Positions 1,653 to 63,675 of a stretch of DNA of 64,000 nt are shown here, piece by piece. Origin of the DNA: Candidatus Heimdallarchaeota archaeon (GTDB lineage Archaea > Asgardarchaeota > Heimdallarchaeia > Heimdallarchaeales > Heimdallarchaeaceae). The notes below the pieces were generated by a model. The model was not told the DNA's origin. It ran no database searches and saw only the letters and a list, made by a program, of their open reading frames with translations. The stretch lies in contig JAUVXV010000008.1 of assembly GCA_030603365.1 (NCBI GenBank), forward strand, positions 1-64,000, given 5' to 3'. The number at the start of each line of letters is the position of its first letter. Position 1 is the stretch's first letter. Position numbers and translations under genes: made by a program.

Positions 1653-4600
1653 TTAGAATCTTACTGTAGCTATCTTGTAAGCATCAAATACAGGTGTTAA
1701 GATACCTAGTTCTATAAATTCAAAGATTATAGGCAATCCTATCTCAATTCTAATACTATCAATTTCATCAAAAATTTTACTTATTGTTACATGATCATTT
1801 TCCATTATATATGTAATTAATTGCTTCTTGAGTCCTGTAAGTTCTGCGATTATATTTGTTTTATATGGAGAAATAATAAAAGGATAGAATATCCATAAAT
1901 GGATTTCCGTCATTATCTTCTCTGTTATCCCCTGGAGATTGATTCTAAAAATCTCTGTAGAACCATCCCAGTCTTCTGGTATTTGATTAAACATTTTAGC
2001 AAACCAATTACTAATGACTGTAAGCCTTTCTTCAATTTCTTCATTCAAATCAGCTTCAGAGAAAGTGTATATGGTAAATTGACCAGATTCAGTTCCAGTT
2101 ACTAAGAAGTTTTTGTATTGCAACCTTTTAACAGAACCAGCTTTATCACCTCTAAGTTCAACACCCATAGAGGATATAGCTGAAAGAAAACCAGTTATGA
2201 GTGAAGGATCTAAAGTTATTTCGGATCCTAAATCCATTTCATAGACAGGTAAACCAGTAACTTTGTGGACTATAATTATTTTTGTAATTGAAAGAACACT
2301 TTCATATAAACCATAAATTCTTGTGAATAAGGTTTTTTCTGCACGCTTATCTTTGTTCATCTTCCGTCTAATAAAATAAACCATAGGAGTAATAATAATA
2401 GCAGCACCAAAAATACCTATTACAACAAAAAGTATTGGAGGTATTTCTCCTTCGACAGGATTTAGTATAGAAATGGATTTAATAGCAATATCAATTTGAG
2501 ATACATATCCATCTTTGGATATGTTAATAAAAACATTAACAGTGGTTTCTTGGGGTTCATGAATCCTGAAAACTATATAATAAGTACCATCATTTTCATA
2601 CTTTGTAATTAGTTCAGCATCTTGAACATCAAATGAAACATCAAATTCAGCTCCAGAGATATTTTGAGAATGAATTGTATCAACATAAATGAACGCAATT
2701 GTTGTTTCATTACCATAATATAGCTCATCTTCAGAAGAAATTATCTCTATTAGAGTTGGAGTTTCTTGAATGTTCAATGTTACTTGAGTAGTAGCATTTT
2801 CTTGTTCATAATCTACAAAGAAACCTAGTTTTGAGACTGAAATTCTTATAGTATAAGATCCTACGACCAAATCTAATCCAAGACTATTGGAATAAAGTTC
2901 TAATTGCATATCATTTGTACCTGAAAATTCTCTAACTCCATATTCTAAAGTTTCAACTAGTAAAACATCATCTAGATAGAAATACATCTCATCAGGAATT
3001 ATTGGATTGTCTGTTTCATTTGATAAGTCTTCAACTGTAAATGGGATTATTGATTCTGCGTCATTATAATACGAGTTATAATTATAGGAATTGGGAGAAA
3101 TTTCAAAAGTATGATACACTTTTAAATTGAATGTTATTGAATGTGTTTCCAGTAGAAGCCCAGTTGCTGTAAGGGTTATAGAGTAATCACCTGATAAAAC
3201 ATTTATGGGGATGTCTAGTTCATAATATGGTCCAACATAATTCAATAAACCCGAAGTTCCCCAAGAAGTATTGTAAGCTACAGGTGCAGATATTATGGGA
3301 GTTCCTTCTCCTGTGAAAAATGGATCACTAATATTATTATACTGAATTTGAGCTATAATTCCCTGCAGATTTATCCTTTCAATTATGATAGAAGAATTGG
3401 ATATCATGCTTCCTCCTACTGTTTCTTCCCAACTGAAAGAAGCAGTTGTAGACTTCCTCACTGAGATTCTTTCCGAGTAGAAACCTATTTCAGTTCCATT
3501 CTTCCAATAACATACTACAGTCCAGAAACCTTCTGAATCACTGCCATCAATAGAGGGATCGAAAACTGTATTTATTGAATATTGACCAGGAAATTCTTGG
3601 CTTAATTGAAGAATTGTATATTCTGTAACATCATTAAAGATAATATTCGATGGAACATCTGTTTTTAGAGGAACGATGTCACCATTTGGATCATAGAGTG
3701 TGAAATTTAATTCACCAGAAAGAACATCAGAAGAAAGTAAATCTTTGATAAATACATCAGCTATTACTAAAGATCCATTCGTTCCAGTCGCATAAGTTCC
3801 ATCTGTTGTCCAAGACCCTAAATTGAAAATGTGTGTGTTCAGATTTAAATCATAAAGATAATTAGAACTTGTAGATGTGAAAGTAAGGTTTCCAGAAGCA
3901 TATTCTATTCCAGATAAAATTGTGTTTAAGTTGAAATTGTAACCTAGAGTACTTTTAACCCCAGAGATGGAAATTGAGTCATTAACTAGTAAATTGAAAG
4001 TCTGATTATTCCAATCACTAGGCGTTAAAAGCTCTTGAGTTCTTGCTGGATTAGTGTAATTTAAAAGATTCAGTATGCTGATATCCCATACTAAGGTCCA
4101 ATAAACTGTTTCTGCAAGATGAGTTGAGTTAGAAACCACATAATTGGATTTTGCTAATACAGCTTTATCAAAAATATATGTGTTATTCATAGTAATTTCT
4201 ACTGAATCATTGGAAATTAGAGTATGAATACCACTTCCTATTATTTGTTGAGTCAGAGAAGTTACAGATACAGAATTGTCTTCTAAAACAATATTAGAGG
4301 GGTCAGTAATTATTTGTGCTGTCCCATTAGAATATGAATGCTTTAATTCCACTAGCAACCCTCTTGTTTCATCACTAATTTCATTCCAAGAAACACCATC
4401 ATGATCATAACAGGGATAACCAGGGGTTACTATTTGTTTTCCTAACCAATCAAATTCATCATTATTATCATCGACAACTGTTAATTCTATCACTATGAAA
4501 TAAGTTCCTTTTTCTAATATTGCTTCTCCAGTCTTAGAAGTATTTAGAAAATCATAATAACCGTAATTCCCTACTGAACTTGGAGGGATAAGATTTGAGG

Positions 4601-5273
4601 AGTTATAAGGTCCATTAACCTCAACTGCACGAATATCACTTAAATTAGGTTCCCCTAATCCATTAGCTTTTACAACATAAAGCTCTATTTCATCATTACC
4701 TAAAGTTGGACCAGTGGTTACTAGGTTAATTTCAGCACTGTAAAATACACCATAATCCCAAATTATCTGAAAAGCTTGAGCTACTCGAATACTGCCACTA
4801 TCAAGACGAGCATGTTTATTTTCTACCGCTCCATCATAAACTGCATAAGAATCTTGTATTGAAGTAATTGTCATATCATACTGAAGATAATCAGCACTGA
4901 AATCTGAGGGTGGTTGAATGTTGAAGCTTTCTTCCCAATCATTACTAGAATTTAGAATAAGGTTATTAATATGAGATACAGACAATTCATCTCTTATAGA
5001 AAAGTTATCACCTACTCCTGTTTGAGTATCAATAGGTGTATAGTATAATTGAGGATTTTCCGGAAAAATTTCAGGATTTTCAACACTATAGATTTCATAT
5101 AAATCATTAGGATTTGTTATTTGATCAAGATATATGGAATTATCACTACCTAATGGATTTCTTCTGTGTATATCTGAAAGCACATAATTCGAAGCCAGAT
5201 TGATAATTACTAAAATGCATACTATATACTTTTTATACTTATTCTGACCCATAAAATGAAACCCCAATATCAA
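1653..5273 (-). CDS. Large single-pass surface protein: signal/TM, beta-rich (Ig-like) ectodomain, TM, cytoplasmic longin-like + winged-helix domain (paralogue 1)
   Basis: N-terminal hydrophobic segment, many NxS/T sequons, TM ILFVVIGIFGAAIIITPMVYF followed by RRK, then KIIIVHKVTGLPVYE..DPSLITGFLSAISSMG.E..G.VKRLQY, a typical Asgard longin-like pattern. Confidence 0.8.
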   Translation of the reverse strand: MILGFHFMGQNKYKKYIVCILVIINLASNYVLSDIHRRNPLGSDNSIYLDQITNPNDLYEIYSVENPEIFPENPQLYYTPIDTQTGVGDNFSIRDELSVSHINNLILNSSNDWEESFNIQPPSDFSADYLQYDMTITSIQDSYAVYDGAVENKHARLDSGSIRVAQAFQIIWDYGVFYSAEINLVTTGPTLGNDEIELYVVKANGLGEPNLSDIRAVEVNGPYNSSNLIPPSSVGNYGYYDFLNTSKTGEAILEKGTYFIVIELTVVDDNNDEFDWLGKQIVTPGYPCYDHDGVSWNEISDETRGLLVELKHSYSNGTAQIITDPSNIVLEDNSVSVTSLTQQIIGSGIHTLISNDSVEITMNNTYIFDKAVLAKSNYVVSNSTHLAETVYWTLVWDISILNLLNYTNPARTQELLTPSDWNNQTFNLLVNDSISISGVKSTLGYNFNLNTILSGIEYASGNLTFTSTSSNYLYDLNLNTHIFNLGSWTTDGTYATGTNGSLVIADVFIKDLLSSDVLSGELNFTLYDPNGDIVPLKTDVPSNIIFNDVTEYTILQLSQEFPGQYSINTVFDPSIDGSDSEGFWTVVCYWKNGTEIGFYSERISVRKSTTASFSWEETVGGSMISNSSIIIERINLQGIIAQIQYNNISDPFFTGEGTPIISAPVAYNTSWGTSGLLNYVGPYYELDIPINVLSGDYSITLTATGLLLETHSITFNLKVYHTFEISPNSYNYNSYYNDAESIIPFTVEDLSNETDNPIIPDEMYFYLDDVLLVETLEYGVREFSGTNDMQLELYSNSLGLDLVVGSYTIRISVSKLGFFVDYEQENATTQVTLNIQETPTLIEIISSEDELYYGNETTIAFIYVDTIHSQNISGAEFDVSFDVQDAELITKYENDGTYYIVFRIHEPQETTVNVFINISKDGYVSQIDIAIKSISILNPVEGEIPPILFVVIGIFGAAIIITPMVYFIRRKMNKDKRAEKTLFTRIYGLYESVLSITKIIIVHKVTGLPVYEMDLGSEITLDPSLITGFLSAISSMGVELRGDKAGSVKRLQYKNFLVTGTESGQFTIYTFSEADLNEEIEERLTVISNWFAKMFNQIPEDWDGSTEIFRINLQGITEKIMTEIHLWIFYPFIISPYKTNIIAELTGLKKQLITYIMENDHVTISKIFDEIDSIRIEIGLPIIFEFIELGILTPVFDAYKIATVRF

Positions 5274-5422
5274 TTACAGACTTAATTATGTTATTCTTTA
5301 CAGTTTCTTTATTCTTTATAAATTATTAGTTAATTTCTATTTAAAAAGTTATGAAAATGACTAACAAAAGGTAGAAATACTTTTTCACAATCTTTTATGA
5401 TGTAAAGTTTGATTTTTCATTC

Positions 5423-8400
5423 CTAAAAACGAACTGTAGCAATCTTATAAGCATCGTATTCAGGTTCTAGAATATTGCTTTCAATTAGTTCAAAGATAAC
5501 TGGTAATCCTTGTTCAAATGTGATATAATCAATATCATCAAAGAGACGACTGATTGTGATATTATCTATTTCTTGAATGTAATTAATTAATTTCTTCCTA
5601 AGACCTGACATCTGTTCTATTTCTATGGTTTTATTTGGTGCGACTCTAAAAGGATAGAATATCCATAGATGAATTTCTTTCATTATTTTTTCAGTTATTC
5701 CTTGTAGATTAAGTCTAAAGGGTTCTGTTGATCCATCCCAATCTTCTGGAATGTTACTGAAGAGCATAGCAAACCAATCACTAATTACAGTCAGTTTTTT
5801 CTCTATTTCTTCATTTAATTCTGCTTCTGAAAAAGTGTAAAGTGTAAATTGTCCTGATTTTGATGCTGTAACTTGGAAATCCATATATTCTACCCTTTTA
5901 ACGCTTGCAGTTTTATCACCTTTCATTTCCCCTCCAACACTTGAAACAGCTGAAAGAAATCCAGTAATTAAGGATGGGTCTAAGGTAATCTCAGATCCTA
6001 AATCCATTTCATACACTGGTAAGCTCGTTGCACTATGAACAATTATCAGTTTAGTAACAGACAGGATACCCTCATAGAAATTATAAATTTGAGTGAATTG
6101 AGATTTTTGAGCTCTTTTTTCTCTAATCACTTTCCTTCGAGCAAATAGTACTATAGGTATAATCAATATTACAGCTCCGATAATCCCAGCTATAATGAAG
6201 ATGTAAATTGGAAGTCCAGTTGGAGAAGGTGGTGGAGTCTGTATAATATTAATACTAATACCAACTAATCTAAAATCAGCTTTTGCTTCATATCCTACTT
6301 TAGAAACATTGACATAGATATTAAGAGATGATACTGATGGCTCTAAAGTTTTGACAATTATAGAATAAATTCCATTTACTTCAGGATCTAACCAAACTTC
6401 AACATTCGATATGTCGACTCTAACATCCACATCTGCATTTCTGATAAGCGTTGAGTGGTTAGTATCAAAGTAGCTAAACTTGATTATAGTTTGACTATTC
6501 TTATCTATTTCTTCTACAGTTTCTTCTATAGTGATGTCAGTTGCAATTGTTAATGTGTTTAAACTGAAACTTTCTAGAATATTTCCTTGACCTGTCGAAT
6601 CTATGAAATTGGTTTTGGTTATATTTACATCAAGATTATAGACACCAATTCCAAGATTTAATGATCCTGAATTAAATTCTAAAATAATTTTCCCATTAGA
6701 GATTTCTTGTGAATAGTCTGACTGGAGCAAAATTGTTTCGTCGATTTTTAGAATAATTTGATCAGGTTCAACTGGATTACTCATATTGGTTATATCAATT
6801 AAATCAAATCGAATAATGAAGTCATTAGTATAATTTGTGTAATAATCGTTTTTCTCTTTGTTTAACTGAAACACATGAAGAATTCTTACAGTAAACTGAA
6901 CCGTATGATTTTCTAAGAATTGACTTTGAGCACTTAAATCGATTGTATAAGTGCCTGCTTGAACATTAGTTAGAATCTCTCGTTCATAGGAAGACACACC
7001 AAAAGCGATGAGCCCTGTTTCTAACCAACCTGTTGAATAGGTTACTGATGCACTGGTAATTAATGTCCCATTTCCAGTGAAAAAGGGATCACTTATATTG
7101 TAATAACAAATTCGAACCTTTATTCCTTCACCATTAATTCTATCAATAGTTGATAGGCTATCATTAACCCAATTATCACTTCCCTCTATATCTTCCCATT
7201 CAAATTCAGCGAAGGTTGGCTTAACCACAGTTATTATTCTTGATGTGAAACCGACATCAGTTCCATTTTGCCAAAGATAAACTACAGTCCAATAACCCTC
7301 TTTGTCACTACCATAAACAGATGGGTCAAAGAGTGTACTTGCTGAATACTCTCCAGGTCCTGACTGAGTGGAGATTATTTGAGTGTAATAACTAATATCA
7401 TTATAGATTAATTCACTAGGTAAGCTGTTCTTAAAAGATATAATCTGCCCTTCAGGGTCAAAGAGTGTAAAATTCAGATTTCCATTTGTAACTTCACTAT
7501 CAATTGCTTCCTTAACATCTATAATGGAGTTCAAAGGAGAACCTTGATACCCTGTGGCATGTGTTTCATTTGTTTCCCAGTAACCTAAATTGAACGTGTC
7601 AGATGATTGTATAACTTCATAGAGAAGATTTCTACTTGTTGACTGGAAGGAAATATCTCCCTCTAGATAGCTAGAACCTGAAAGTAACTCAATCATGTTC
7701 AAAGTAAAAGTTCTGTCAGATTTTAAGTATGAAAGAGGAGTAGCATCATTTAGAAGTAAACTAAATGAGAAATCATTCCAAGTTTTTGGGATTGTAAAAG
7801 TTTGAGAGCGAGTAGGATTATCATATCCTGAAAAATCAACAGAAGAACTTAGCCACGAAATATTCCATGAAACACTATAATCGTAGAAAGTAGAATTTAT
7901 TGCAGTGTATGATGAACTTCCAACAAATGAACGGCTAAATGAGTAGGAGTTGTTCAGGTTTACAGCAACAGTAGTATTAGAAGTTAGTTCATGGGATCCT
8001 ATCCCACTGATTATTTGAGTTGTTGATGTTATATCAACTCCGTTATCTCTTAGCTGAATTGAAGTTGGGTCTTGATAAATTATAGGTGATCCGTTAGCAT
8101 AAGTTTGCATCAACTCAGGTGCTAAAATGAAATCTTTGTTTATAATTCCTGACCAGACTGTTCCATCATGAGTGTATGAATCAGTATATACTGAGCCTTG
8201 TTGTCCGCGCCAATTAAATCCATCACTATCAACTGCATCAAAACTAGATAAATTAGCTACAACATAATATTTCCCTGTTGTTAATACTACATTATGAAAA
8301 TCATAAAAGACGGTATTTCCTGGAGTACTTTCTGTTATCGGATTAATCGAACCAAAAGGATCATTTGTTGCATTTGAAAGAATGAAACCCATGTCTGGTT

Positions 8401-9022
8401 TTCCATCAACTATACTTGCTTTGACTAAAAACAATTCCAATTCATCCGCCCCTATTGCTGTTTTAATAATTAGGTAGATTTTTGCTCCAGAAAAAACTGC
8501 ATAATCATAAACTACATCAAAACTCTGTGCAACTCTAATATTGGTTGATTCAAGTACTTCGTCTTTATTATGTATAGTCTGTTGAGTAATAAATTCCTGA
8601 CTGGTAGTTATTGAAGTGATATTGTATTGTAAAATATCTTCCGAATAATCAGCTAGACCGCCTATACTATATGAATTTGTTAGACTATTATCAGAGTTTA
8701 ATGAAACAGATAAGGGGTGATGAACGTGCAAGTTGTCATCTACAAGAAAATCATTACCTGAACCTGACAAATCCAATATAGGATCAAAATTCAGTGAATT
8801 AGGATTATAAGATGGTTTTTCTCCTAAAAATATAGTATTAAAACTAATTTCTGCATCCTGTTTGAAGTCTTTATTCATGTTTACTGAAACAGTATCTGTA
8901 GAAATAGCATTAGTTATTCTGTTAGTAAAAGGAGAACTAGATAGAATGAAAAGTGAAATTATTATAATAGACTTTATCTTATCTCGATTTTTCCTAATCT
9001 CAAAACGATAAATAGATTCCAC
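5423..9022 (-). CDS. Large single-pass surface protein with cytoplasmic longin-like + winged-helix domain (paralogue 2)
   Basis: Same architecture as 1653-5273. Shares RVAQ.F, LG.W.T..T.A.G..G, NFTL.DP.G, FDPS..GSD.EG.WT, EMDLGSEITLDPSLITGFLSA and the C-terminal DAYKIATVRF. Confidence 0.8.
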   Translation of the reverse strand: MESIYRFEIRKNRDKIKSIIIISLFILSSSPFTNRITNAISTDTVSVNMNKDFKQDAEISFNTIFLGEKPSYNPNSLNFDPILDLSGSGNDFLVDDNLHVHHPLSVSLNSDNSLTNSYSIGGLADYSEDILQYNITSITTSQEFITQQTIHNKDEVLESTNIRVAQSFDVVYDYAVFSGAKIYLIIKTAIGADELELFLVKASIVDGKPDMGFILSNATNDPFGSINPITESTPGNTVFYDFHNVVLTTGKYYVVANLSSFDAVDSDGFNWRGQQGSVYTDSYTHDGTVWSGIINKDFILAPELMQTYANGSPIIYQDPTSIQLRDNGVDITSTTQIISGIGSHELTSNTTVAVNLNNSYSFSRSFVGSSSYTAINSTFYDYSVSWNISWLSSSVDFSGYDNPTRSQTFTIPKTWNDFSFSLLLNDATPLSYLKSDRTFTLNMIELLSGSSYLEGDISFQSTSRNLLYEVIQSSDTFNLGYWETNETHATGYQGSPLNSIIDVKEAIDSEVTNGNLNFTLFDPEGQIISFKNSLPSELIYNDISYYTQIISTQSGPGEYSASTLFDPSVYGSDKEGYWTVVYLWQNGTDVGFTSRIITVVKPTFAEFEWEDIEGSDNWVNDSLSTIDRINGEGIKVRICYYNISDPFFTGNGTLITSASVTYSTGWLETGLIAFGVSSYEREILTNVQAGTYTIDLSAQSQFLENHTVQFTVRILHVFQLNKEKNDYYTNYTNDFIIRFDLIDITNMSNPVEPDQIILKIDETILLQSDYSQEISNGKIILEFNSGSLNLGIGVYNLDVNITKTNFIDSTGQGNILESFSLNTLTIATDITIEETVEEIDKNSQTIIKFSYFDTNHSTLIRNADVDVRVDISNVEVWLDPEVNGIYSIIVKTLEPSVSSLNIYVNVSKVGYEAKADFRLVGISINIIQTPPPSPTGLPIYIFIIAGIIGAVILIIPIVLFARRKVIREKRAQKSQFTQIYNFYEGILSVTKLIIVHSATSLPVYEMDLGSEITLDPSLITGFLSAVSSVGGEMKGDKTASVKRVEYMDFQVTASKSGQFTLYTFSEAELNEEIEKKLTVISDWFAMLFSNIPEDWDGSTEPFRLNLQGITEKIMKEIHLWIFYPFRVAPNKTIEIEQMSGLRKKLINYIQEIDNITISRLFDDIDYITFEQGLPVIFELIESNILEPEYDAYKIATVRF

Positions 9023-9151
9023 TCTCTTTTACTCTGATAGATACTTTATGTAATTTGAACTTAAAATTCTTTCCAATATTCTAATATTATCTATATAAAA
9101 GAGATTAACAGTAAAAAAATACTTAATCAAACCTTCTAAAATGTCCGTATT

Positions 9152-12100
9152 TCATCCTGTAAAGGATGAGAATTGCATTCTTTCTAGAATACCTTTGTTT
9201 ACAAGTTTAAATACACTAGTTAGTGTATCTTCCATCGGGGAATCATGGAATTTTGTGAGAAGTTCGCTAATAGCTGCTTGTTCTTTTTTCTTCATGTAAA
9301 GAGCAATTCTTACATCGTTCTTTTCTAGCTTCTTTATTTCTCCAGCTTTTGATTGATTGAATTTTAGAGGAAAATAGAGCCATATATACAAAGAATCTGC
9401 AACTTTATCTTGAATTAGATGTCTCTTTTTCTGAAACATCTCAACTCTTCCATCCCACATATCTTCTTTAATTTGAAAACTATATTCAAACCACATTATT
9501 AAATCGAATAGTCTTACTTGAACTTCTTTGATTATGTCTTCAGTTGAAAAGAGGAAAAGAGTGTAAGTATCTGATCGGGCACTATTAACTACAAAGTTTC
9601 TATATTCTAGTTTTTTAATTTCACCAGCTTCTGTTCCACTTATTGTTTTCCCCATTTGAGTTAAAGCCGCTAAGAAACCTGATACTAGAGTAGATTCGAC
9701 AAAAGATTTTTCACCGATATCTACTTCGAAAATTGGTAAACTTGTTTCAGTATGAAGTATTAGAACTTTCTTCATAGCTAAAACACTATCTAGTAGACCA
9801 ACAACTTTAGATTTATCTTGAATATCCATTATTTCAGCTGGTCTCTTTCTATATGATATTGCTATAGCCATAATAGCTATAATGGTTATTATCATGAATG
9901 CAGCTACTGCAATTATGATAATTGCATACAATGGTAGTGGAAGCTGTGCAGAAGCTGTTATTTCAACTGAAAAACTGACTGATATTGCTTCATCTATGTA
10001 GGAAGATTTGAAATTCTCTTTTGTAATATCTAATGTAATGTTTGCTTTTCCTGAAGTTATCCCATAATCTGCTAACTTTACTGTAACATAAACTATACTA
10101 CTTTGGTTTGAAACAGAATAAAAATCACTTGAAACTGGGTTATTATTGATTTTTAGTGATATTGTATCAGGAAGAATTGAACCTTTCGTTGGATCTGTTT
10201 CATTAATTACACTGAATGCTAATATCACTTCTTCTGAAGTATTGGTTTCAATGCTTTGTTGCACAGGAAGTATACTATATACATTGAATATCTCAATTTG
10301 AATATCTACCATCTCTTGAATACTCCAAGAATCATTCAACACTAAAGTAACGGTTCTCAAACCAGCTGTTGTTAATATTGGAATTGCTCCACTAAACTCA
10401 AGTGGATATTCGTCTAGATATCCTTCAAGATTCCAACTAGTTAAGTAACCTATACTAGCATTTTCAACTGGTGAACCGAATTCAGTGAAGAAAGGCTCAC
10501 TATTAGAAAAGAACGAGGCTTTAACGTTTAGAGCATCCCCATTCCTTCTGAGTATTGTCTGAGAGTCATCATTTGTCCAGATATCATTTGAGGGGAGTGT
10601 TTCCCAAGAAGCATTAAAGATTATAGAAGCGTGGACAGATATTCGGATGGAATATATTCCGATTTCTGTTCCATTTTCCCAGAACACAAAAGCAGTCCAA
10701 TACCCAACAGGATCACTTCCATAAACTGAAGGATCTAAAGAAATGTCTGAGGTAAATATGCCTAGACCACTAGAAGTAATTCCAGAATGTGAGTAAGATG
10801 AACTATCTGTATAAGACAGATTTGAAGGGAAAGAAGTCTTGATAGGAAGGATAGAACCTACCGGATTAAAGAGAGTAAAATTTGTTACACCACTGATTTC
10901 ATTGTTCTTTATATTTAATGTAGCAAAAATAGTGTCTCCTTCATAACCATATGCATTAATTCCATCGTTAGTCCAATATCCTAAAGTAAATTCTTCGGTT
11001 AGTTCACTTCCATCCGAGAGTGTTAACTGTTGTACATAATTAGGACTACTCGTATAAAGATCGATAACTCCTGGTTCAGTATTATTACCAAGTTGAAGAA
11101 GGTATCCTTCAACATTTTTTGAGATGATACTAATAGATGATAAATTATAATTTGCAGTAAAAACATCATTCCAATCCGTAGGTACAATAAGAAGTTGTGT
11201 TCTATTTAGGTTTGAATATGGAGAATAATCAATATAGCCAATATTCCAAGTAAAATTCCACAAAATGGAATAAGAATCGAAAGATGAATTAAAAGCTTGG
11301 TAGGTTGAAGATGCTGTTTTCTCATCATAGAATGTGTACCTATTAACTAAATCAATCTCAATTGAAGTATCTGAGGTTATGTGATGTAATCCGGTAGAAG
11401 AAATAGAATCTGTAAAAGTATTTACTATTACAGAATTATCTTCAAGTAATATCCCAGTCAAATCAGTGAAAACCATTGCTGAACCACTAGCATTCGAAGG
11501 TAAAATATCTACAATCATTGTATGATCTATAGAAATCAAAGAAGACCAAATAAAGCTATCATTTCTATAATAGGTGTCTCCACCGAAACCAGAACTTTTT
11601 AAGTGTCCTCTCCACATAAATTTCTTTTGAGAAGTTGGATCCCTTTCAGTTAAATTTGCTACGATGAAATAAAATCCTTGTTCTAATAGAACATTAGTAA
11701 AATCGTAGTAAGAAGTACTTCCAGGGGAAGGTAGTGGATTAGCAGTGTTATATGGATCATTAACATCACTTGAAATTATATTACTCATATTTGGTTTTCC
11801 AGTGGACTCTTCTGCTTTAACGAGTAATAGTTCTAATACATTCAAACCTGTGTGACTAACTGTACCAAAAAGGTCCAAATTAAGGTAAGCTCCATAGAAA
11901 GTTGCGTTTGACCAAGGAATTTCAAATCCTTGTGCTATTGTTATTATTGGATCTATAATTACTTGTTCATCAGCAAAGAGATTTTCGATAGTATAGTTGT
12001 CCCTTTTAGCTCTAACTTCTGTTATTCCATAGTATAAAAACTCAGCTGAAAAACCTGTTAAAGGGTCAATTGTATAATCAGATGCGAATTTATCATCTAT

Positions 12101-12406
12101 ATCATCATATGTAAGATTCAAGCTTAACTCATGGTCTACTGTAATTCTATCCCTTGCAGTAAAGCTTGAACCTGGGTTTGACACATTTGTTATTGGATTA
12201 TAATCATTCAATGAGTAATATGTCGTATCAACAGAATTCTCACTTAAGAGCAGCTCATTTGAATCAGGAAAAACATCAGAATTCGGAACAATATTAGCTG
12301 TTATTACGTGTTCAGATTGTACTGCTATAGTACCATAAAGCATAGTCATAATTAGTATACTTACAGTAATCTTTCTTGAAACGTTCTTTCTCCATGAGCT
12401 TCTCAT
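9152..12406 (-). CDS. Large single-pass surface protein with cytoplasmic longin-like + winged-helix domain (paralogue 3, more divergent)
   Basis: IAQGFEIPW, LGYWTNDG..AYGYEG, LDPSVYGSDPVGYWT, TM LYAIIIIAVAAFMIITIIAIMAI, then KVLILHTETSLPIFE..STLVSGFLAALTQMG..GEIKKLEY and IWLYFPL. Confidence 0.8.
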   Translation of the reverse strand: MRSSWRKNVSRKITVSILIMTMLYGTIAVQSEHVITANIVPNSDVFPDSNELLLSENSVDTTYYSLNDYNPITNVSNPGSSFTARDRITVDHELSLNLTYDDIDDKFASDYTIDPLTGFSAEFLYYGITEVRAKRDNYTIENLFADEQVIIDPIITIAQGFEIPWSNATFYGAYLNLDLFGTVSHTGLNVLELLLVKAEESTGKPNMSNIISSDVNDPYNTANPLPSPGSTSYYDFTNVLLEQGFYFIVANLTERDPTSQKKFMWRGHLKSSGFGGDTYYRNDSFIWSSLISIDHTMIVDILPSNASGSAMVFTDLTGILLEDNSVIVNTFTDSISSTGLHHITSDTSIEIDLVNRYTFYDEKTASSTYQAFNSSFDSYSILWNFTWNIGYIDYSPYSNLNRTQLLIVPTDWNDVFTANYNLSSISIISKNVEGYLLQLGNNTEPGVIDLYTSSPNYVQQLTLSDGSELTEEFTLGYWTNDGINAYGYEGDTIFATLNIKNNEISGVTNFTLFNPVGSILPIKTSFPSNLSYTDSSSYSHSGITSSGLGIFTSDISLDPSVYGSDPVGYWTAFVFWENGTEIGIYSIRISVHASIIFNASWETLPSNDIWTNDDSQTILRRNGDALNVKASFFSNSEPFFTEFGSPVENASIGYLTSWNLEGYLDEYPLEFSGAIPILTTAGLRTVTLVLNDSWSIQEMVDIQIEIFNVYSILPVQQSIETNTSEEVILAFSVINETDPTKGSILPDTISLKINNNPVSSDFYSVSNQSSIVYVTVKLADYGITSGKANITLDITKENFKSSYIDEAISVSFSVEITASAQLPLPLYAIIIIAVAAFMIITIIAIMAIAISYRKRPAEIMDIQDKSKVVGLLDSVLAMKKVLILHTETSLPIFEVDIGEKSFVESTLVSGFLAALTQMGKTISGTEAGEIKKLEYRNFVVNSARSDTYTLFLFSTEDIIKEVQVRLFDLIMWFEYSFQIKEDMWDGRVEMFQKKRHLIQDKVADSLYIWLYFPLKFNQSKAGEIKKLEKNDVRIALYMKKKEQAAISELLTKFHDSPMEDTLTSVFKLVNKGILERMQFSSFTG

Positions 12407-12532
12407 TCTTAGACCTCTAAACTAAAGGATTCACTTTGAAACTGCTGGTTAATCTATTTATATCTGTGTAAAGCACAAAATATATCTTGTTATTTAGGAA
12501 AATGGAGTAAAACTCTATTTTATTTTAGCAAT

Positions 12533-13213
12533 CTACTTCTTATCAAATTCAAAAAAAGTCTGTGTAAATTGGTCAGAGGTTTCTGTTATAATAAATTCCT
12601 TTTCAACAAGTTTGAAAATCAGTGTTAATAACTCTTCATGAGTATAGTTATCTAGCTCATTCATCAATCTCATTATGGAAGTCTGTTTGTGTTCTGCAAA
12701 GTGTGTCAAAATTTCTCTCAATAGTGTGCTTTCGCTCTCTATTTCAGCTAATTTTGATATATCAATTTCAAGTGGATAGAGAAGCCATAAACTGAAGAGA
12801 TGAGTCATCTTATCCAGTATACTCATTTTGTAGTAATCAGAAAATTCAATTGAATAATCACCTTCTGTACTATCAAAACCAAAAATTAAGTCAAACCAAT
12901 TAACTAAATCATTCACTTTTATCCCTAAGTCGCTAAGCATCTCTCTTTCACAGAAAAGATAAGCGGAATACGAACTATAGCTTCCACAATATACTACAAA
13001 ACCATAGTATTTAATTAAGCGAACATCTGCGATCAAGCCTATTGTCTCTACTTCTAGAGGGTCTTCATTTTCGAGGATATCACAGATAATAGATGGATCC
13101 AAATTAATCTGACTATTCATATCCATTTCAAACAGAGGTAAGCATTGTTCATGTTGCACTACAAGGATTTTTCTTATCATGAAAACATCTTGGAGTATTT
13201 TTTCATATTCCAT
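12533..13213 (-). CDS. Soluble stand-alone longin-like + winged-helix protein, paralogous to the cytoplasmic tails of the three downstream membrane proteins
   Basis: IRKILVVQHEQCLPLFEMDMNSQINLDPSII, DLVNWFDLIF, LWLLYPL and LIFKLVEKEFI align with the tails of paralogues 1-3. No TM segment. Confidence 0.75.
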   Translation of the reverse strand: MEYEKILQDVFMIRKILVVQHEQCLPLFEMDMNSQINLDPSIICDILENEDPLEVETIGLIADVRLIKYYGFVVYCGSYSSYSAYLFCEREMLSDLGIKVNDLVNWFDLIFGFDSTEGDYSIEFSDYYKMSILDKMTHLFSLWLLYPLEIDISKLAEIESESTLLREILTHFAEHKQTSIMRLMNELDNYTHEELLTLIFKLVEKEFIITETSDQFTQTFFEFDKK

Positions 13214-13536: not shown

Positions 13537-15051
13537 TTATTTTCTCTTAGATTTATAATATCTCAAGAATATAATTGTACAAATCCCAACAATATCAGCT
13601 ACTAACCAAATTACAATATAGTTTGTTTTTGATATAAGGAACGCTGGTTGATCAATCTCTAGAAAAACATTCGGCTCATCGGTAGTAACTGATGTTACTC
13701 CTAGTGTCCATACTTGTTGAAATCTTGATGCAATATTTACTGTCCAGACATTAATGTCTATACCCGCTTCTGCAAAATCCTTGAAGAATTTGTCATTTTT
13801 CCCATGGTGTGTATTAATCATATCATATCCAGTTGCTTGGAATTCTTCTACAGTTATATAATCTACAAGGTCCAGAGTCAAAGCAGTTGTCATACTAGGA
13901 GCACTTAGGATTACTTTATCTAACCAGTCTCTCTCATACGAGGTCACCCAGATTTGTTCATCTATACTTGCATTGATAAGTACATCAAGAATTATGTCGA
14001 AGTATTGATCATAATATGGATGACTCTCTTCGAGTGTATATTTGAAATCCACTTCTACTAATAGATTAGCATCTCGTGAGAAATTTAGAGCTTCTTCTAA
14101 AGTTGGGATTGAAGCATTCTGATATATATCTAGCATAGATTGTTGTATTTCACCTCTGGCTATTGTTCCATGAGGATCTTCATTAACAAACCATGCACCT
14201 GCATTCAACTGCTTTATTTCACTCATAGTAAAGTTACTAGCTGGTTCATCTTCTCTTTCTGAAAATTCTTCTGAAACATTTGTAGTTCTTTTCAAGGTAC
14301 CATCATGCATAAGGAATGGAATGCCATCATAACTCAGCTGAACATCAATTTCCCAACCACTTGCATTGATCTGTTGAGTAAATAATCCTGCTTCTATAGT
14401 ATTTTCTGGAGCAAAATGAGCTCCTCCACGATGAGCGATGATTTGTGGTTTTGCTGGTAGTTCCCCAGCTAGTACATAGGTTGGTTGAAGAACAAGAGGC
14501 ATTACAACTATCCAAGCATATAGAAGAACAATACTAGTGATGGCTAAAGCTTTTTTCAGTCTCGGTATGAAGAAAGGATTAGCTGGTTTTTTCAATATTC
14601 TTAGAAATTCCTTTGAGAGTGGATAGAGAAATATCAAGAATCCTACTGTTATGAATACGAAAATAAAGAGGCTGTAATATTGGAGAGTCTGAGTTATTAT
14701 TACAGAATCTTCTCCAAAGGTAAGTATTAATTGTACAAACAAGGCAACACCTAATACTAACGATAATATAGAAAGTATCTTGTTTACCAATGCTGGTTTA
14801 GTTTCATTTTTGTTTTTCAGATGAAAAGAATATCTAACTAGGAATATTCCTGTGTATATAAGAGGAACACAGAAAATAAGCATAATAATTAGAACATAAT
14901 TAGTTTTCAAATTGAGCATATTAGATAAGACTTTATTGAAATCCCAGTATAGTGGTCTCATCATAAGGAGAAGAATTTCTAAAAATAATATGAACAAGAA
15001 AATTATTGTGAAAAGTAAAATCCACTTTTTACCTTTTTTATTAGGAAACAT
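13537..15051 (-). CDS. Six-TM glycerophosphodiester phosphodiesterase, GDE2/GDE3/GDE6 (GDPD5/2/4)-like
   Basis: IIAHRGG...APENT, WEIDVQLSYDGIPFLMHDGTLKRTTNV, LNAGAWF..DP, INVWTVN, GVTSVTTD. Five N-terminal TMs and one C-terminal TM (YIVIWLVADIV). Confidence 0.9.
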   Translation of the reverse strand: MFPNKKGKKWILLFTIIFLFILFLEILLLMMRPLYWDFNKVLSNMLNLKTNYVLIIMLIFCVPLIYTGIFLVRYSFHLKNKNETKPALVNKILSILSLVLGVALFVQLILTFGEDSVIITQTLQYYSLFIFVFITVGFLIFLYPLSKEFLRILKKPANPFFIPRLKKALAITSIVLLYAWIVVMPLVLQPTYVLAGELPAKPQIIAHRGGAHFAPENTIEAGLFTQQINASGWEIDVQLSYDGIPFLMHDGTLKRTTNVSEEFSEREDEPASNFTMSEIKQLNAGAWFVNEDPHGTIARGEIQQSMLDIYQNASIPTLEEALNFSRDANLLVEVDFKYTLEESHPYYDQYFDIILDVLINASIDEQIWVTSYERDWLDKVILSAPSMTTALTLDLVDYITVEEFQATGYDMINTHHGKNDKFFKDFAEAGIDINVWTVNIASRFQQVWTLGVTSVTTDEPNVFLEIDQPAFLISKTNYIVIWLVADIVGICTIIFLRYYKSKRK

Positions 15052-17179: not shown

Positions 17180-17377
17180 ATGAAAGGCACAATCAAGAGG
17201 ATCATGTATGATAGAAACTTTGGTTTTATCCAGACAGAAGACGAAGATAAAGATATCTTTTTCCATCAATCTGGTGTAACTGTTGAATTCGGTGATCTAA
17301 AAGAAGGAGATACTGTAGAATTCGATGTTGAAGATACTGATCGAGGACAACAAGCAGTCAATCTCAAGACAGTATAA
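17180..17377 (+). CDS. cspA: Cold-shock domain protein
   Basis: MKGTIK...RNFGFI (RNP1), DIFFHQS (RNP2), LKEGDTVEFDVE...RGQQAVNL. SD GGAGG. Confidence 0.95.
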   Translation: MKGTIKRIMYDRNFGFIQTEDEDKDIFFHQSGVTVEFGDLKEGDTVEFDVEDTDRGQQAVNLKTV

Positions 17378-21085: not shown

Positions 21086-21190
21086 TTGACGTAGTCTTTA
21101 AAAGTTAGGTAAATTTCTGATTAACAGTTTTTGATTAAAACAAGATACTAAAAGTGTCAACAAAGAAATAATTTACGGAGGAATTCCTTT
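21086..21190 (+). promoter_or_regulatory. Structured 5' leader of second cold-shock gene with SD-sequestering hairpin
   Basis: TTGAC(21086)/GTCAA(21156) closes a long stem containing AGTTAG/CTGATT. GGAGG-AATT-CCTTT hairpin at 21177-21190 covers the SD and part of the TTG start. Confidence 0.5.
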
Positions 21191-21386
21191 GAAAGGTGTT
21201 ATTAAAAGAGTAATGTACGACCGAAATTATGGTTTTATCAATGTTGAAGGAGAAGAAAAAGATATTTTCTTCCACAGTTCCGGATGCAAAGCAGATTTCC
21301 AAGATCTAAGAGAAGGTGTTGAAGTCGAATTTGATATTGAAGAAACCGATAGAGGTAAACAAGCTACAAATGTAGTTACTGCATAA
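21189..21386 (+). CDS. cspA: Cold-shock domain protein (paralogue of 17180)
   Basis: RNYGFI, DIFFHSS, LREG.EVEFDIE.TDRGKQA. TTG start with GGAGG SD. Confidence 0.95.
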   Translation: MKGVIKRVMYDRNYGFINVEGEEKDIFFHSSGCKADFQDLREGVEVEFDIEETDRGKQATNVVTA

Positions 21387-21529: not shown

Positions 21530-22780
21530 TCAAGTAAAGCTTATTTGTATATAGAGATCGATTTCTTGATTTTTCCTTAAAACTCCACTGACATAGAAAG
21601 TTTCGTAATTACGGATATTCTGTTCCTTTAGAGTTAAATTTAGTTCAACTTCTTCAGGGTCTTTTTTGTCTATTCTCCAGAAAGTAGGTGGAAATTCTAA
21701 ATCATGCGTGTAACCTTTGTTTTTAATTATTGTAAGAATAGTATCAACTGTTGTTGTATTTGGGAGTTTAAATTTCTTTATCACAGCAGCATTTGGTCCA
21801 CACAGAACACATTTTTTATTTGGAGGTTTTTCAAAGTAGAAAAATTTACCAATTAATCCATTATAAATTGTGTACTCATTATTTACTGATCCTAGTTTAA
21901 CTCCTTTTACATGATGCAAGAGTTTCAATGCTTCTTGAGATTGAAGAGATGCTATTATTGCATTTATTGTTATAATTGTGGGATCATGCTGATCAACCAT
22001 TTTTACTACTTCATCTATTGTAAAAATGCTCTCCTTTGGAAAATGTTCCTTAGTAAGCTTATTTGCATAGGCTAAAACAATTCTCATTTCTTCAAGGACA
22101 GTTGTATCAGGTGGTCGATTATGTTTTGATTCAAAATGTAACTGCCCTTTAAGTAAACAATGCGACCTTTTTCTTGGGATTCCAACTAGTGTACAAGCTG
22201 CTAAAGTTTCTCTTTCTCTTTCTGCTTGAGGGTCACATTGAAGGCATGCATTTTTTCCGGGTAAATAGGTATAAACATGACCATAATATGTTACTGTTCC
22301 ACCATCTATCAATGGTTTCCTGTAATGAACTGCTCTTCTATTCAGTTCACTTCTTGCTATAACTGAATCTAGACCCGAGATTAGAAGATCTGCATTAACA
22401 TAAATTTGAGGATCTATATCTTCCAGATTTGAATGATGCCATATATATCTACAATATGGGTTAATTTTTCTTAGTGTCCTTGCTGCAACTTTAGATTTTG
22501 GCTCTCCTTCATCAGCGTCAGAAAACAAGATTTGTCTGTTCAAATTCGAATACTCTATGATATCTAAATCTATCAGATGTAAAGTCCCCACACCAGCCAT
22601 TGCAAGATTCTTAGCTACTTCAGTACCTAATCCACCTATACCTACAATAACTACTATTGAATCTTTCAATGCTTTTTGATTCCATCCAGGTAATCGTAAT
22701 TGTCTATCAAATCGTTTTCTTTCTTCGGAAGAGAAAGATTCATCAAAAAAATTAGACTGTTGTTTAGTATTTTTATCCAT
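21530..22780 (-). CDS. Ubiquitin-like activating enzyme E1 (ThiF fold with Uba3-like catalytic-Cys and C-terminal ubiquitin-fold domains)
   Basis: RFDRQ, GIGGLG, D.D.IEYSNLNRQ.LF, CLQC and CVLC zinc pairs, catalytic AACTLVGIPR..SHC, C-terminal beta-grasp-like extension. Confidence 0.9.
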   Translation of the reverse strand: MDKNTKQQSNFFDESFSSEERKRFDRQLRLPGWNQKALKDSIVVIVGIGGLGTEVAKNLAMAGVGTLHLIDLDIIEYSNLNRQILFSDADEGEPKSKVAARTLRKINPYCRYIWHHSNLEDIDPQIYVNADLLISGLDSVIARSELNRRAVHYRKPLIDGGTVTYYGHVYTYLPGKNACLQCDPQAERERETLAACTLVGIPRKRSHCLLKGQLHFESKHNRPPDTTVLEEMRIVLAYANKLTKEHFPKESIFTIDEVVKMVDQHDPTIITINAIIASLQSQEALKLLHHVKGVKLGSVNNEYTIYNGLIGKFFYFEKPPNKKCVLCGPNAAVIKKFKLPNTTTVDTILTIIKNKGYTHDLEFPPTFWRIDKKDPEEVELNLTLKEQNIRNYETFYVSGVLRKNQEIDLYIQISFT

Positions 22781-22889
22781 TAGTATACAGCTCTGTGATT
22801 TTTGTTTTATACTCCCATAGAATATTGCATTATATTAAAAAATTAAAAGGAAAGGAGAAACTATTTCGTCCAATCCCAAGAATATTTTT

Positions 22890-23252
22890 TTACTTACCAG
22901 CTGTTGATACAGGAATAAGTAGGACAGTATCTCCGTCTTCGACACCATAGTCTTCAAATGTATCATCAGGATCACATGTTCTACCTGCATGAGATAGATG
23001 AAATTCGTCTGGAGGTAATCCAAAGATTTGACTTACAGTGTATTTGATATCCCCAATTGGTGCATCAGTAGCTACAACTAGTTTTTCTTGTTTTGGACTT
23101 GGTCCGATTGTACTTTGGAAATAGACACTGATCTTTTTACCAGCAGGAGTCTTAGACTTTTCTGGTGTCTTAGAAATAATGTCTTCTTCTTCAACTTCCT
23201 CTTCTTCTTCCTCAAAGGATAATTCTTCAAATTCTTCGCTCATTTTTATCAT
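22890..23252 (-). CDS. Ubiquitin-like protein with acidic N-terminal extension, C-terminus ...STAG-K
   Basis: IGDIKYTVSQIFGLPPDEFHLSHAGRTCDPDDTFEDYGVEDGDTVLLI matches the ubiquitin beta-grasp pattern. Directly upstream of the E1. Confidence 0.88.
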   Translation of the reverse strand: MIKMSEEFEELSFEEEEEEVEEEDIISKTPEKSKTPAGKKISVYFQSTIGPSPKQEKLVVATDAPIGDIKYTVSQIFGLPPDEFHLSHAGRTCDPDDTFEDYGVEDGDTVLLIPVSTAGK

Positions 23253-23485
23253 TCCTATTTTAACACATCTTATATTTAATTAATAAGCATATTAAAAATT
23301 TCCTTTTTGGGTATAAAAAACATTCTTATTTAGAAAAATAAATAACAAAAATAGTTTGAAACTATCTAAAAGACTAATAAAAGGAAAAAAGATAACCTAA
23401 ATGACAGATATATATTGTAAAGAGGAGCAAGAAATTCTAATTTTGCGATAGAAAATGAAAGGCAAAGAGTGAGTGTGACTTACTG

Positions 23486-24217
23486 ATGAAAGATAAAAAC
23501 AAGCAAAAACGGCATTCATCAAAGAAACCTAAGCAGAAATTCCCTATAGATTCAAAGATACCAAGACAAAAATCTCCTTCTGATAAAATTCCTAAACAAC
23601 GAATTGGGGATGATAGTCTACTTCCTCCTAAAAGACAGAGATCAAGAAAAGAATCATCAGCTCCCAGTAAGTCCAGATTAAAACAAGATGAAATAAGGAA
23701 GTCTAACAAAGGAATTGAAAAAGAAAGAATAGTAACTAAGAAACCTAAAGGAGAGAGATTTGTAGATCAACCAAAACAAAGCAAAGGAATTCCAAAACAA
23801 AAAATTCCCAAAACTAAAATTCCACAACAAGATAAACTAGAGAAAACCAAGGAAAGGAATATTATTCCTGATGACAGTGAATCAAGAAAAAAAGAGAAGA
23901 AGGAATCAACACCACCAAGAAGAGAAAATTTTAGAGAGATTAAGACACTAGATTCGAAAGCCTTGGAGAAAACTGAGAGGGAAAAAAGAGAATCTTCTCC
24001 TCCTCCGTCAAACAATAAGGATCAATTTTCTGAAACTGAAAAACATGATTCAAGAACGGTTCCAAAAGAAGAGAAAGTAAGAGAGAAGAGGGAAAGAGAA
24101 GCTCCAGTTACAAGAGAAATTGAGGAAAAACCAAAACACAAACAACCAACTCAGAAGATTCCAAGCCAGAAATATCCTCAACAGACAAAAAAACCTAAAC
24201 AAAAGAAACCTAGGTAA
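23486..24217 (+). CDS. Lys/Arg/Glu/Pro-rich intrinsically disordered protein with P-x-Q-K-(I)-P repeats
   Basis: 243 aa open frame, almost no hydrophobic residues. Repeats KPKQKFP, IPRQKSP, IPKQRI, IPKQKIPKTKIPQQ, PTQKIPSQKYPQQ, KPKQKKP. Confidence 0.7.
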   Translation: MKDKNKQKRHSSKKPKQKFPIDSKIPRQKSPSDKIPKQRIGDDSLLPPKRQRSRKESSAPSKSRLKQDEIRKSNKGIEKERIVTKKPKGERFVDQPKQSKGIPKQKIPKTKIPQQDKLEKTKERNIIPDDSESRKKEKKESTPPRRENFREIKTLDSKALEKTEREKRESSPPPSNNKDQFSETEKHDSRTVPKEEKVREKREREAPVTREIEEKPKHKQPTQKIPSQKYPQQTKKPKQKKPR

Positions 24218-24239
24218 TTCCCTTCAGAGAGACTTTTTT

Positions 24240-24833
24240 TCATACAAATAAAGTTAACAGAGCTGAATAGAAGTATACAATTCCAAAAATCATTAAAAAT
24301 AGATTTTCTAGATAAAACAATGTGATCAGAATATATATTGCAGGTATTATTAGCATTAATAGAAAACCAAAAAGTTTTGGGGGAATACCTTTTTCACTTG
24401 TACCTTTCATTCTTATGAATGGATATCTGATGAAAGTCCTAAATAGCAAGAAATTACTGAAGATGTAATAAGGTAAAAGGAAGAAATCAACAATTGTGAT
24501 AAAAAAATCATAAGATGAACTACCAATATTAAATGTGCTTGTTGAAATTATAGCTGAATCAAGATCATTTATTCCTAACAATATTTGTGCTAAAACGATT
24601 ATTACTGGGACTAAAGGAACTATTAATACAAAGAAAACTTCGTTGAACGTTGCATTATGTTTTAAGTAATATATACTTCTAAATGTGAAGAAAAGTGTCA
24701 AAAATGCGAAAATTGCAATAAAAATATATAACTTACCAAACTCATTGTTTTCTTCTATGAAATAGTATATAGATACACCTACCAGTGTCAGAGACACAAG
24801 AAATGCAGCAGTGAGTTGTGATATTGTTCTCAT
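24240..24833 (-). CDS. Polytopic membrane protein, RING-less paralogue of the TM domain of 24902-25984
   Basis: About 6 TMs. YYLKHNA vs HYKKHNA, and DFFITIVDFFLLPYYIF vs EFFFNLISISLLIPSIIF. Confidence 0.75.
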   Translation of the reverse strand: MRTISQLTAAFLVSLTLVGVSIYYFIEENNEFGKLYIFIAIFAFLTLFFTFRSIYYLKHNATFNEVFFVLIVPLVPVIIVLAQILLGINDLDSAIISTSTFNIGSSSYDFFITIVDFFLLPYYIFSNFLLFRTFIRYPFIRMKGTSEKGIPPKLFGFLLMLIIPAIYILITLFYLENLFLMIFGIVYFYSALLTLFV

Positions 24834-24901
24834 GTTAACACCAAGTTTCTTCAGTATGGTTCTATTTTAACTATTTTTTAAAATATTGGCATATCTTACA
24901 T

Positions 24902-25984: not shown

Positions 25985-25989
25985 ATGTT

Positions 25990-63123: not shown

Positions 63124-63675
63124 TTACTTTTCTGCTTCAATAGATTTATCTATCATCATATCTGTCAGGTGGAAGTATATTTCTGTTATGTTTGTTCCTT
63201 CCTTAGCAGATACTTCGTAGTATGGTAATTCTTCTAATTTGTAAAGTTCTCTCTTCTTTTCAGCATAAGCTAAAGCTTGTTCTTGAGTCACCCTTCTTTC
63301 TTCAGAAATATCAGCTTTATTACCGATTAGAATTGCAGGAATTATTTCTTCACAATTGGAATAAACTTCTTCAAACCATTTATCTAGATTTTCGAAAGAT
63401 TCTTCATCTGCTATGTCATAGACTACTAGAACTCCATAGCTTCCTTTGTAATATAGGGGGCGTACATAGGAAAAACGATCGTGACTACCTGTATCCCAAG
63501 TTTGTAATTTAACTTGTTTCCCCTGGACTTCTATATCTTTAACTGAAAACTCCACTCCGATAGTTGGTAAATATCTTTCTCTAAAAGTACCAGTTGCAAA
63601 TCTCAATGTAATTGAGGTTTTACCTACACCTGGTGAACCAACTATAATTGTTTTAAATAGATAGTCAAACAGCAA
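63124..63675 (-). CDS. Rab-like small GTPase with non-canonical G3 box
   Basis: GSPGVGKT, PTIGVEF, KLQTWDTGSH, YYKGS, VVYDI, GNKAD, EVSAK. No C-terminal Cys. Confidence 0.92.
   Translation of the reverse strand: MLFDYLFKTIIVGSPGVGKTSITLRFATGTFRERYLPTIGVEFSVKDIEVQGKQVKLQTWDTGSHDRFSYVRPLYYKGSYGVLVVYDIADEESFENLDKWFEEVYSNCEEIIPAILIGNKADISEERRVTQEQALAYAEKKRELYKLEELPYYEVSAKEGTNITEIYFHLTDMMIDKSIEAEK

Follow-up and report, generated by a model that had tools for sequence, protein, structure and literature searches.

Four adjacent genes near the start of a 64,000-nucleotide stretch of Candidatus Heimdallarchaeota archaeon DNA (assembly GCA_030603365.1, contig JAUVXV010000008.1, positions 1 to 64,000; the window hereafter) encode three giant surface proteins, each with a C-terminal tail module of ~210 amino acids (aa) that is predicted to combine a longin-like domain with a winged helix, and one soluble copy of the same module. 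This architecture of surface proteins and tail module is close to certain. We consider it the most likely reading, with about an even chance of being right, that the module is a membrane-anchored docking and dimerization platform that recruits cytoplasmic partners, small GTPases being the leading candidates; the GTPase step and any direction of signaling are inferred.

Asgard archaea are rich in genes for longin, roadblock, and small-GTPase proteins. How are these proteins linked to membranes and to the outside in cells that have no obvious organelles? In most representatives of the family described here, a surface glycoprotein carries a longin-type module at its inner end. Docking of GTPases by the module, if it occurs, would provide a concrete physical link from the cell surface to a eukaryote-like switch machinery, as well as candidate partners for matching orphan Asgard GTPases to their regulators.

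The gene array and its surface proteins

The array consists of four co-oriented open reading frames (ORFs) on the minus strand, at positions 1653 to 13213 of the window (G+C content ~31%), with intergenic gaps of 126 to 149 bp. The first gene (12533 to 13213) encodes a soluble protein of 226 aa without a transmembrane (TM) helix, and it is followed by the genes for surface protein 1 (1,084 aa; 9152 to 12406), surface protein 2 (1,199 aa; 5423 to 9022, with a GTG start), and surface protein 3 (1,206 aa; 1653 to 5273, with a TTG start, where the Met at residue 8 may be the real start). Proteins 2 and 3 share 44% identity across their full length, and protein 1 is 33% identical to protein 2 in the ectodomain and 26% identical in the tail. 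An alignment of the four upstream regions revealed no shared promoter-like motif. The array is not a chance arrangement, because the same gene order, with a soluble copy followed by proteins of ~1,065, ~1,195, and ~1,210 aa, recurs in other Heimdallarchaeota genomes. One relative has genes for 233, 1,064, 1,194, and 1,210 aa in the order of the array, another has two soluble copies followed by genes for 1,066 and 1,200 aa, and several genomes of the same genus pair module genes of ~235 to 250 aa with module genes of ~1,070 to 1,220 aa.

The N-terminus of each large protein is charged and then hydrophobic, resembling a signal peptide, and each protein has one further TM helix. This helix spans aa 828 to 846 in protein 1 (9869 to 9925), where it is followed by YRKRP, aa 941 to 959 in protein 2 (6146 to 6202), followed by ARRKVIREKRAQK, and aa 947 to 965 in protein 3 (2379 to 2435), followed by IRRKMNKDKRAEK. 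A cluster of Arg and Lys residues thus stands directly behind the TM helix in all three proteins, which by the positive-inside rule predicts that the tails lie on the cytoplasmic side.

The ectodomains cover aa 31 to 826 in protein 1 (9929 to 12316; 23 sequons), aa 40 to 938 in protein 2 (6209 to 8905; 20 sequons), and aa 34 to 945 in protein 3 (2439 to 5174; 24 sequons). They are acidic and rich in Ser, Thr, and Asn. Their 20 to 24 N-x-S/T sequons per 796 to 912 aa compare with ~14 expected from shuffled sequences and with 0 to 2 in the tails, and their fraction of Lys plus Arg is ~0.04 versus 0.11 to 0.14 in the tails. AlphaFold2, supplied with 31 homologues, modeled the ectodomain of protein 2, to which that of protein 1 is homologous, as all-beta with a predicted local distance difference test (pLDDT) score of 87. 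A Foldseek search with this model returned only strings of immunoglobulin (Ig)-like sandwiches (titin Ig arrays, surface layer [S-layer] proteins of Nitrosopumilus and Bacillus, complement MG domains, and contactins). Searches of the large proteins against Pfam and NCBIfam gave ectodomain matches to Ribophorin II, Filamin, and hemicentin, all of them below the cut-offs. The ectodomain is, according to the model, that of a beta-sandwich surface protein, and the model names no ligand.

Taken together, the three large genes encode type I single-pass surface proteins that are probably N-glycosylated, and they display the predicted hallmarks of archaeal surface or S-layer glycoproteins: a beta-sandwich ectodomain with N-glycosylation sequons between a signal peptide and a C-terminal TM anchor. 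A first-pass annotation of the window, made from the nucleotide sequence, had described four co-oriented genes, one for a soluble 226-aa protein and three for paralogues with a signal peptide, a sequon-rich ectodomain, a single TM helix, and a homologous cytoplasmic tail. The ORFs were found at exactly the coordinates that it gave, and every one of these points was borne out, as was its expectation of an Ig-type or beta-sandwich ectodomain.

Fold and family of the tail module

The module occupies aa 870 to 1076 of protein 1 (9179 to 9799), aa 979 to 1187 of protein 2 (5462 to 6088), and aa 987 to 1194 of protein 3 (1692 to 2315). Protein 1 matches the module hidden Markov model (HMM) with an E-value of 1e−69, and a search of the genome gave the same coordinates; the limits in protein 3 come from the alignment, the module HMM, and the genome search. 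The tail of protein 2 was modeled with AlphaFold2 from a 70-sequence alignment, with a mean pLDDT of 91 and a predicted template modeling score of 0.86. In the N-terminal half of the model, a helix (residues 2 to 13) is followed by two strands (15 to 22 and 27 to 33), a long helix (42 to 60), and three strands (69 to 72, 75 to 82, and 85 to 91). The C-terminal half contains two helices (97 to 113 and 126 to 142) and a three-helix winged helix with a short hairpin (166 to 213). The succession of two strands, a helix, three strands, and two helices, in which five antiparallel strands make up the sheet and one helix covers a face of it, is that of a longin domain.

An exhaustive structural comparison of the tail model with 48,161 solved chains (VIA-align) placed longin domains at the top, with Z values of 9.5 to 11 and 119 to 127 aligned residues at a root mean square deviation of ~3 Å over model residues 14 to 147. 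These included the AP-4, AP-3, and AP-5 small chains, TRAPP Bet5/Trs23, Fuzzy, BLOC-3, Sec22, and Mon1-Ccz1. Roadblock proteins, including PDB entry 9jue, followed with Z values of 8 to 10 over residues 10 to 116; Prometheoarchaeum Roadblock3, MglB, LAMTOR, and a Thorarchaeota roadblock belong to this group. Foldseek listed MON1A-CCZ1, Fuzzy-Inturned, and Ragulator first, with E-values of ~1e−3. The domain combines a roadblock-type N-terminal helix with two longin-type C-terminal helices, and the winged helix behind it matched a solved winged-helix domain with a Z value of 7.6 in VIA-align. The model thus predicts, with high confidence, that the tail is a longin/roadblock-type alpha-beta sandwich joined by a short helical linker to a winged helix. 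This agrees with the longin and winged-helix tail that the first-pass annotation had anticipated.

Several of the best structural matches belong to membrane traffic, and this raises the possibility that the tail is a sorting or trafficking device, marking cargo or nucleating a coat or membrane-remodeling assembly in the manner of an adaptor small chain or a SNARE longin. The longins of AP-4, AP-3, AP-5, AP-2, and COPI small and medium subunits and of Sec22 and VAMP7 are among the top matches, and Asgard genomes encode adaptin-like and ESCRT components, according to a preprint by Liu et al. However, the locus has neither a SNARE motif nor an adaptin-like gene, and fold similarity cannot separate the longin classes, because their Z values lie within 1 to 1.5 of each other. 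We regard such a role as unlikely.

The winged helix suggests a different function, that of a membrane-tethered transcription regulator which would bind DNA at the membrane, like ToxR and CadC, or after proteolytic release, with the soluble copy as a free regulator. The module does end in a winged helix-turn-helix (HTH), and weak profile matches to a penicillinase repressor and an archaeal HTH regulator were obtained (E-values of ~0.4). However, the third (“recognition”) helix, which would be basic in a ToxR-like regulator, is acidic or hydrophobic, its net charge being −3, −3, −1, and −2 in the window proteins and averaging −1 across the family. This speaks against DNA binding. In three of the four window proteins, the winged helix taken as a whole also has a negative net charge, and related family members carry winged helices of the protein-binding PCI/DDRGK type. 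A regulator of this kind appears quite improbable.

At the sequence level, the module stands apart from described families. Searches of the four window proteins and of 70 family members against Pfam and NCBIfam gave no match on the tail; roadblock/LC7 (PF03259) gave no Pfam match on the tails, though the N-terminal helix (residues 2 to 13) is present; and the 70-sequence tail profile found nothing below an E-value of 0.1 among PDB sequences. Rows for haemagglutinin HA2 and HTH proteins in the latter search were rejected as noise. A bridge to known longins is provided by a distant tetratricopeptide repeat (TPR)-containing paralogue from the same genome, which matches the tail profile with an E-value of 3e−14 and Fuz_longin_1 (PF19036) with an E-value of 5e−5 and 23.8 bits, under the cut-off of 26.1. 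Conservation in the family is highest in the motif D..LISGFL.AI...G.E on the central helix, where G47 is present in 94% and A51 in 96% of the sequences.

The 226-aa protein is a true paralogue of the tails, as the first-pass annotation had stated. Its translated ORF matches them in BLASTP with E-values of 8e−24 and 2e−29 (25 to 30% identity over ~200 aa) and the module HMM at aa 4 to 210 (E-value of 8e−60), and the four-way alignment of soluble protein and tails has 26 invariant columns. Its alpha1 helix is divergent, yet kept by the orthologues, which are 68 to 89% identical and annotated only as hypothetical proteins of Heimdallarchaeaceae. In these soluble orthologues, ICD[IV]L..Q.P replaces SGFL.A and EG[DE]YS replaces WDG. 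Because the replaced central-helix motif is conserved among the orthologues, the soluble copy looks specialized, not decayed, a free version of the tail module with its own sequence signature. A second soluble type that retains the canonical motif is found in relatives. Members of the soluble family share a conserved ending of their own, TSDQFTQTFFELD, and proteins 2 and 3 and the orthologue P0008 end in an identical ...DAYKIATVRF beyond the winged helix (window 1653 to 1685 and 5423 to 5455), which is absent from the 1,084-aa and soluble proteins. Both kinds of endings could be short docking motifs.

Among 1.84 billion representative proteins, a profile built from the four copies found 260 relatives at an E-value of ≤1e−3, of which 39 reached ≤1e−30. 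The module match is C-terminal in nearly all relatives listed, which are 200 to 2,900 aa long. A TM helix lies within ~50 aa upstream of the module in 101 of 154 family proteins, behind ectodomains that range from tens of residues to more than 2,500; 15 of the 154 are stand-alone modules, and the others have soluble N-terminal extensions. Close relatives of the tail (69 to 82% identity) are from Candidatus Heimdallarchaeota genomes, including AB_125. Strong full-length matches occur in the window's own family and in about nine other Asgard families, one of which has tandem arrays of TM-module proteins of ~750 aa; the neighbors of these arrays (FMN reductase, U32 peptidase, and sulfatase) are uninformative. 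A shape search of the ESM Atlas returned three near-identical folds, in clusters of 233, 734, and 753 aa, all from Promethearchaeota, the library's name for Asgard archaea. At an E-value of ≤1e−10, 289 of the 301 genomes of the phylum have a match, a count that reflects the breadth of the Asgard longin superfamily and not of the full module, because the weaker matches, whose coverage was checked in five genomes from distant families, mostly cover the longin part only.

The genome itself encodes four further copies of the module: a 1,669-aa surface protein, a 220-aa soluble protein, and weaker matches in TPR-longin proteins of 623 and 674 aa. The gene for the 220-aa copy, on contig 1 (L004:3086-6348), lies directly upstream of one for an 848-aa Peptidase_M48/BlaR1-type M56 protein, so that a free module stands beside a protein resembling a membrane sensor-protease. 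On contig 15 (L003:5176-11424), three TPR genes stand in tandem, for 674, 723, and 681 aa. The tail profile matches a longin-like domain at the C-terminus of the 674- and 723-aa proteins, and the 674-aa protein touches Fuz_longin_1, the first longin domain of MON1/FUZ/HPS1, narrowly missing the cut-off.

A proposed docking platform and its possible partners

What could such a tail do behind a surface protein? We propose that the module would act as a docking and dimerization platform anchored in the membrane. Two modules would pair via the conserved central helix and the edge of the sheet, as other longin and roadblock proteins do, either tail to tail or tail to soluble copy, and the paired surface would recruit cytoplasmic partners, most plausibly one of the many small GTPases of the genome. 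Cell surface glycoproteins would thereby be physically tied to a eukaryote-like GTPase machinery, with a logic comparable to that of Ragulator anchoring Rag GTPases on a membrane. The coupling could serve for sensing inward, act outward, or merely position or sort surface proteins. In solved dimers of roadblock and longin proteins, the central helix forms the surface through which the domains pair and which faces the GTPase, as summarized in PMC10933270. A complex prediction for the soluble protein and the tail of the 1,199-aa protein gave scores of 0.36, 0.00, and 0.00 and speaks neither for nor against binding.

For the link to small GTPases that the first-pass annotation had proposed, the support is indirect. 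The fold resembles that of longins in GTPase platforms, and two Rab-like GTPases fused to the module were found side by side on one unrelated metagenomic contig (L013:3311-4687, plus strand, 458 aa; L013:5106-6428, minus strand, 440 aa). In both, a low-complexity linker of ~60 aa leads to a complete longin and winged-helix module, and strong divergence separates the two copies. Fusions of Asgard GTPases to longin or roadblock domains in general are reported in Tran et al. 2024 (PMC10933270), where the matching of Asgard GTPases to their regulators is said to be hard because operons are lacking. Module proteins of ~460 aa from another Asgard family were considered as further fusions and rejected, as they contain no GTPase.

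Several observations weigh against a GTPase platform. The locus and its immediate surroundings contain no gene for a small GTPase, the nearest Ras-family match being ~50 kb off (63157 to 63654), and although the genome has 38 Ras-family matches, the four paralogous module loci have none nearby. The fusions look rare; a single contig yielded them, and a word-index search for more returned only the query. On the tail itself, the longin and roadblock models of Pfam all fall short of significance, and its fold rests on a predicted model and not on a solved structure. Longin and roadblock folds also occur in proteins unrelated to GTPases, such as SNAREs, adaptor small chains, and dynein light chains. 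Moreover, the module is fused to TPR and LRR domains, a HerA-like ATPase, PCI/DDRGK winged helices, and FG-GAP propellers, and with so many unrelated partners a general adaptor fits as well as a GTPase platform. Finally, arginine is found in at most 10% of the sequences at every position of the 70-sequence alignment, and no catalytic residue can be named.

The last observation bears directly on a catalytic role, in which the tail would act on a Rag- or Arf-like GTPase as a GTPase-activating protein (GAP) of the folliculin/SMCR8/NPRL2 type, with its longin domain contributing the arginine finger. C9orf72-SMCR8 is among the structural matches (Z value of 7.5), and the loop between strands 1 and 2 of the tail carries a conserved [GS]-L-P. 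Heimdallarchaeia do encode longins of the FLCN/SMCR8 type with a GP motif and an arginine finger, according to a 2025 article in Traffic (PMC12290439). However, the tail loop has LP and not GP, and the family conserves no arginine; therefore, we consider a GAP of this type very unlikely.

In some family members (P0090, P0109, and P0141), the module is accompanied by several PCI/DDRGK/UFL1-like winged helices in an array, and P0109 also has a beta-propeller resembling FG-GAP, BBS2-BBS7, and ITFG2.

The main rival to a docking platform for cytoplasmic partners is a purely structural anchor. The large proteins would then be S-layer-like envelope glycoproteins whose tails oligomerize or fasten them to the cytoskeleton, ESCRT, or another scaffold, with no GTPase or signaling involved. 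Like TM-anchored archaeal S-layer glycoproteins, they combine a signal peptide and a C-terminal TM helix with a sequon-rich array of beta-sandwiches, and their ectodomain matches archaeal (Nitrosopumilus) and bacterial S-layer proteins along with other Ig-like arrays. Tandem paralogues are frequent among envelope proteins, roadblock and longin domains are classical dimerization adaptors, and both the absence of a nearby GTPase gene and the joining of the module to many unrelated domains fit an anchor. However, TM-anchored archaeal S-layer proteins normally end in a few cytoplasmic residues, and here a folded domain of 230 aa stands behind the anchor. In addition, the 210-aa tail is the better-conserved part of the two larger paralogues (~69% identity between proteins 2 and 3 versus ~40% for the ectodomain), which suggests a specific cytoplasmic partner, and fusions of the module to GTPases exist. 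We give the purely structural anchor a tentative standing, well short of an even chance. If the tail only anchors, it would still be an unusual means of fixing envelope proteins.

A more far-reaching version of the docking platform would make the module the output of a widespread Asgard surface-receptor family. Engagement or clustering of the ectodomains would alter the pairing of the longin domains, with each other or with the soluble copy, and so recruit or regulate Rab/Rag-like GTPases. We hold this version to be possible and put it on a par with the structural anchor. If true, it would amount to a prokaryotic receptor-to-small-GTPase pathway, a plausible forerunner of membrane-anchored platforms such as Ragulator.

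Known systems and neighboring genes

Ragulator is one of the closest known parallels to the proposed platform. Its membrane-anchored LAMTOR roadblock dimers dock Rag GTPases via the C-terminal roadblock domains of the latter. In both systems, a roadblock/longin-type platform would sit at a membrane, LAMTOR chains are among the structural matches of the tail, and GTPases with a C-terminal domain of the same kind exist, the Rag proteins in eukaryotes and the Rab-like fusions described above. However, the anchor here is the TM helix of a giant surface glycoprotein, whereas Ragulator is a lipidated scaffold on an organelle; the tail has an additional winged helix, and the longin topology, with its two C-terminal helices, fits it better than a pure roadblock.

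The eukaryotic longin platforms with guanine nucleotide exchange factor activity, Mon1-Ccz1, Fuzzy-Inturned, BLOC-3, and TRAPP Bet5-Trs23, all act as longin dimers. Together with CPLANE, to which Fuzzy-Inturned belongs, they gave the best Foldseek and were among the best VIA-align matches of the tail, with a sequence identity of 7 to 14%. Unlike the module, these platforms are soluble and peripheral, often have three tandem longins, and in no case form the tail of a transmembrane receptor.

Prokaryotes also have systems in which a roadblock protein is coupled to a small GTPase, namely MglA/MglB and the Streptomyces conservon, the latter comprising the membrane sensor CvnA, the roadblock protein CvnB, the HTH-like CvnC, and the small GTPase CvnD. 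The tail matches MglB and a Streptomyces roadblock in structure. However, the operons of both systems include the GTPase gene, and such adjacency of roadblock and GTPase genes was found neither at the locus nor at the four paralogous loci. Compared with the conservon, the locus has no Pfam match to roadblock or DUF742, and the parts are fused into one receptor-like chain.

The described Asgard roadblock, longin, and GTPase-fusion proteins (Tran et al. 2024; PDB entries 9jue, 7yh1, 8yqg, and 9m28) come from the same phylum and share the fold class, and the tail matches Prometheoarchaeum Roadblock3 with a Z value of 10.0, a Lokiarchaeota Roadblock-Longin protein with 9.5, and LokiRagM with 8.2. 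These proteins are soluble, whereas the module described here is the tail of a surface protein and includes a winged helix. Longin and roadblock proteins and GTPase fusions are well documented in Asgard archaea (PMC10933270; Liu et al. preprint). Within the limited set of papers searched, no description was found of a longin-type module as the cytoplasmic tail of a single-pass surface protein or of a unit of longin and winged helix. What is new is the receptor-like setting of an already known fold class.

Among the sequencing runs listed as containing the sequence, none is an RNA run, and the DNA runs are cold-seep and marine-sediment metagenomes, mostly with small shares, which supports no conclusion on expression or habitat.

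Other genes of the window were noted in passing. The gene upstream of the array (13537 to 15051) codes for 504 aa, beginning with several TM helices that are followed by a soluble domain and one last TM helix. Farther along, two paralogous 65-aa ORFs on the plus strand, 4 kb apart (17180 to 17377 and 21189 to 21386), share the pattern MKG.IKR.MYDRN.GFI... and resemble cold-shock-domain proteins. The region from 21530 to 26712, judged by eye from the ORF translations only, looks like a ubiquitin-like conjugation neighborhood, with an E1-like protein of 416 aa, a ubiquitin-like protein of 120 aa with an acidic N-terminus, a JAB/MPN-like protein of 240 aa, and a multi-TM protein with a Cys-rich, RING-like end.

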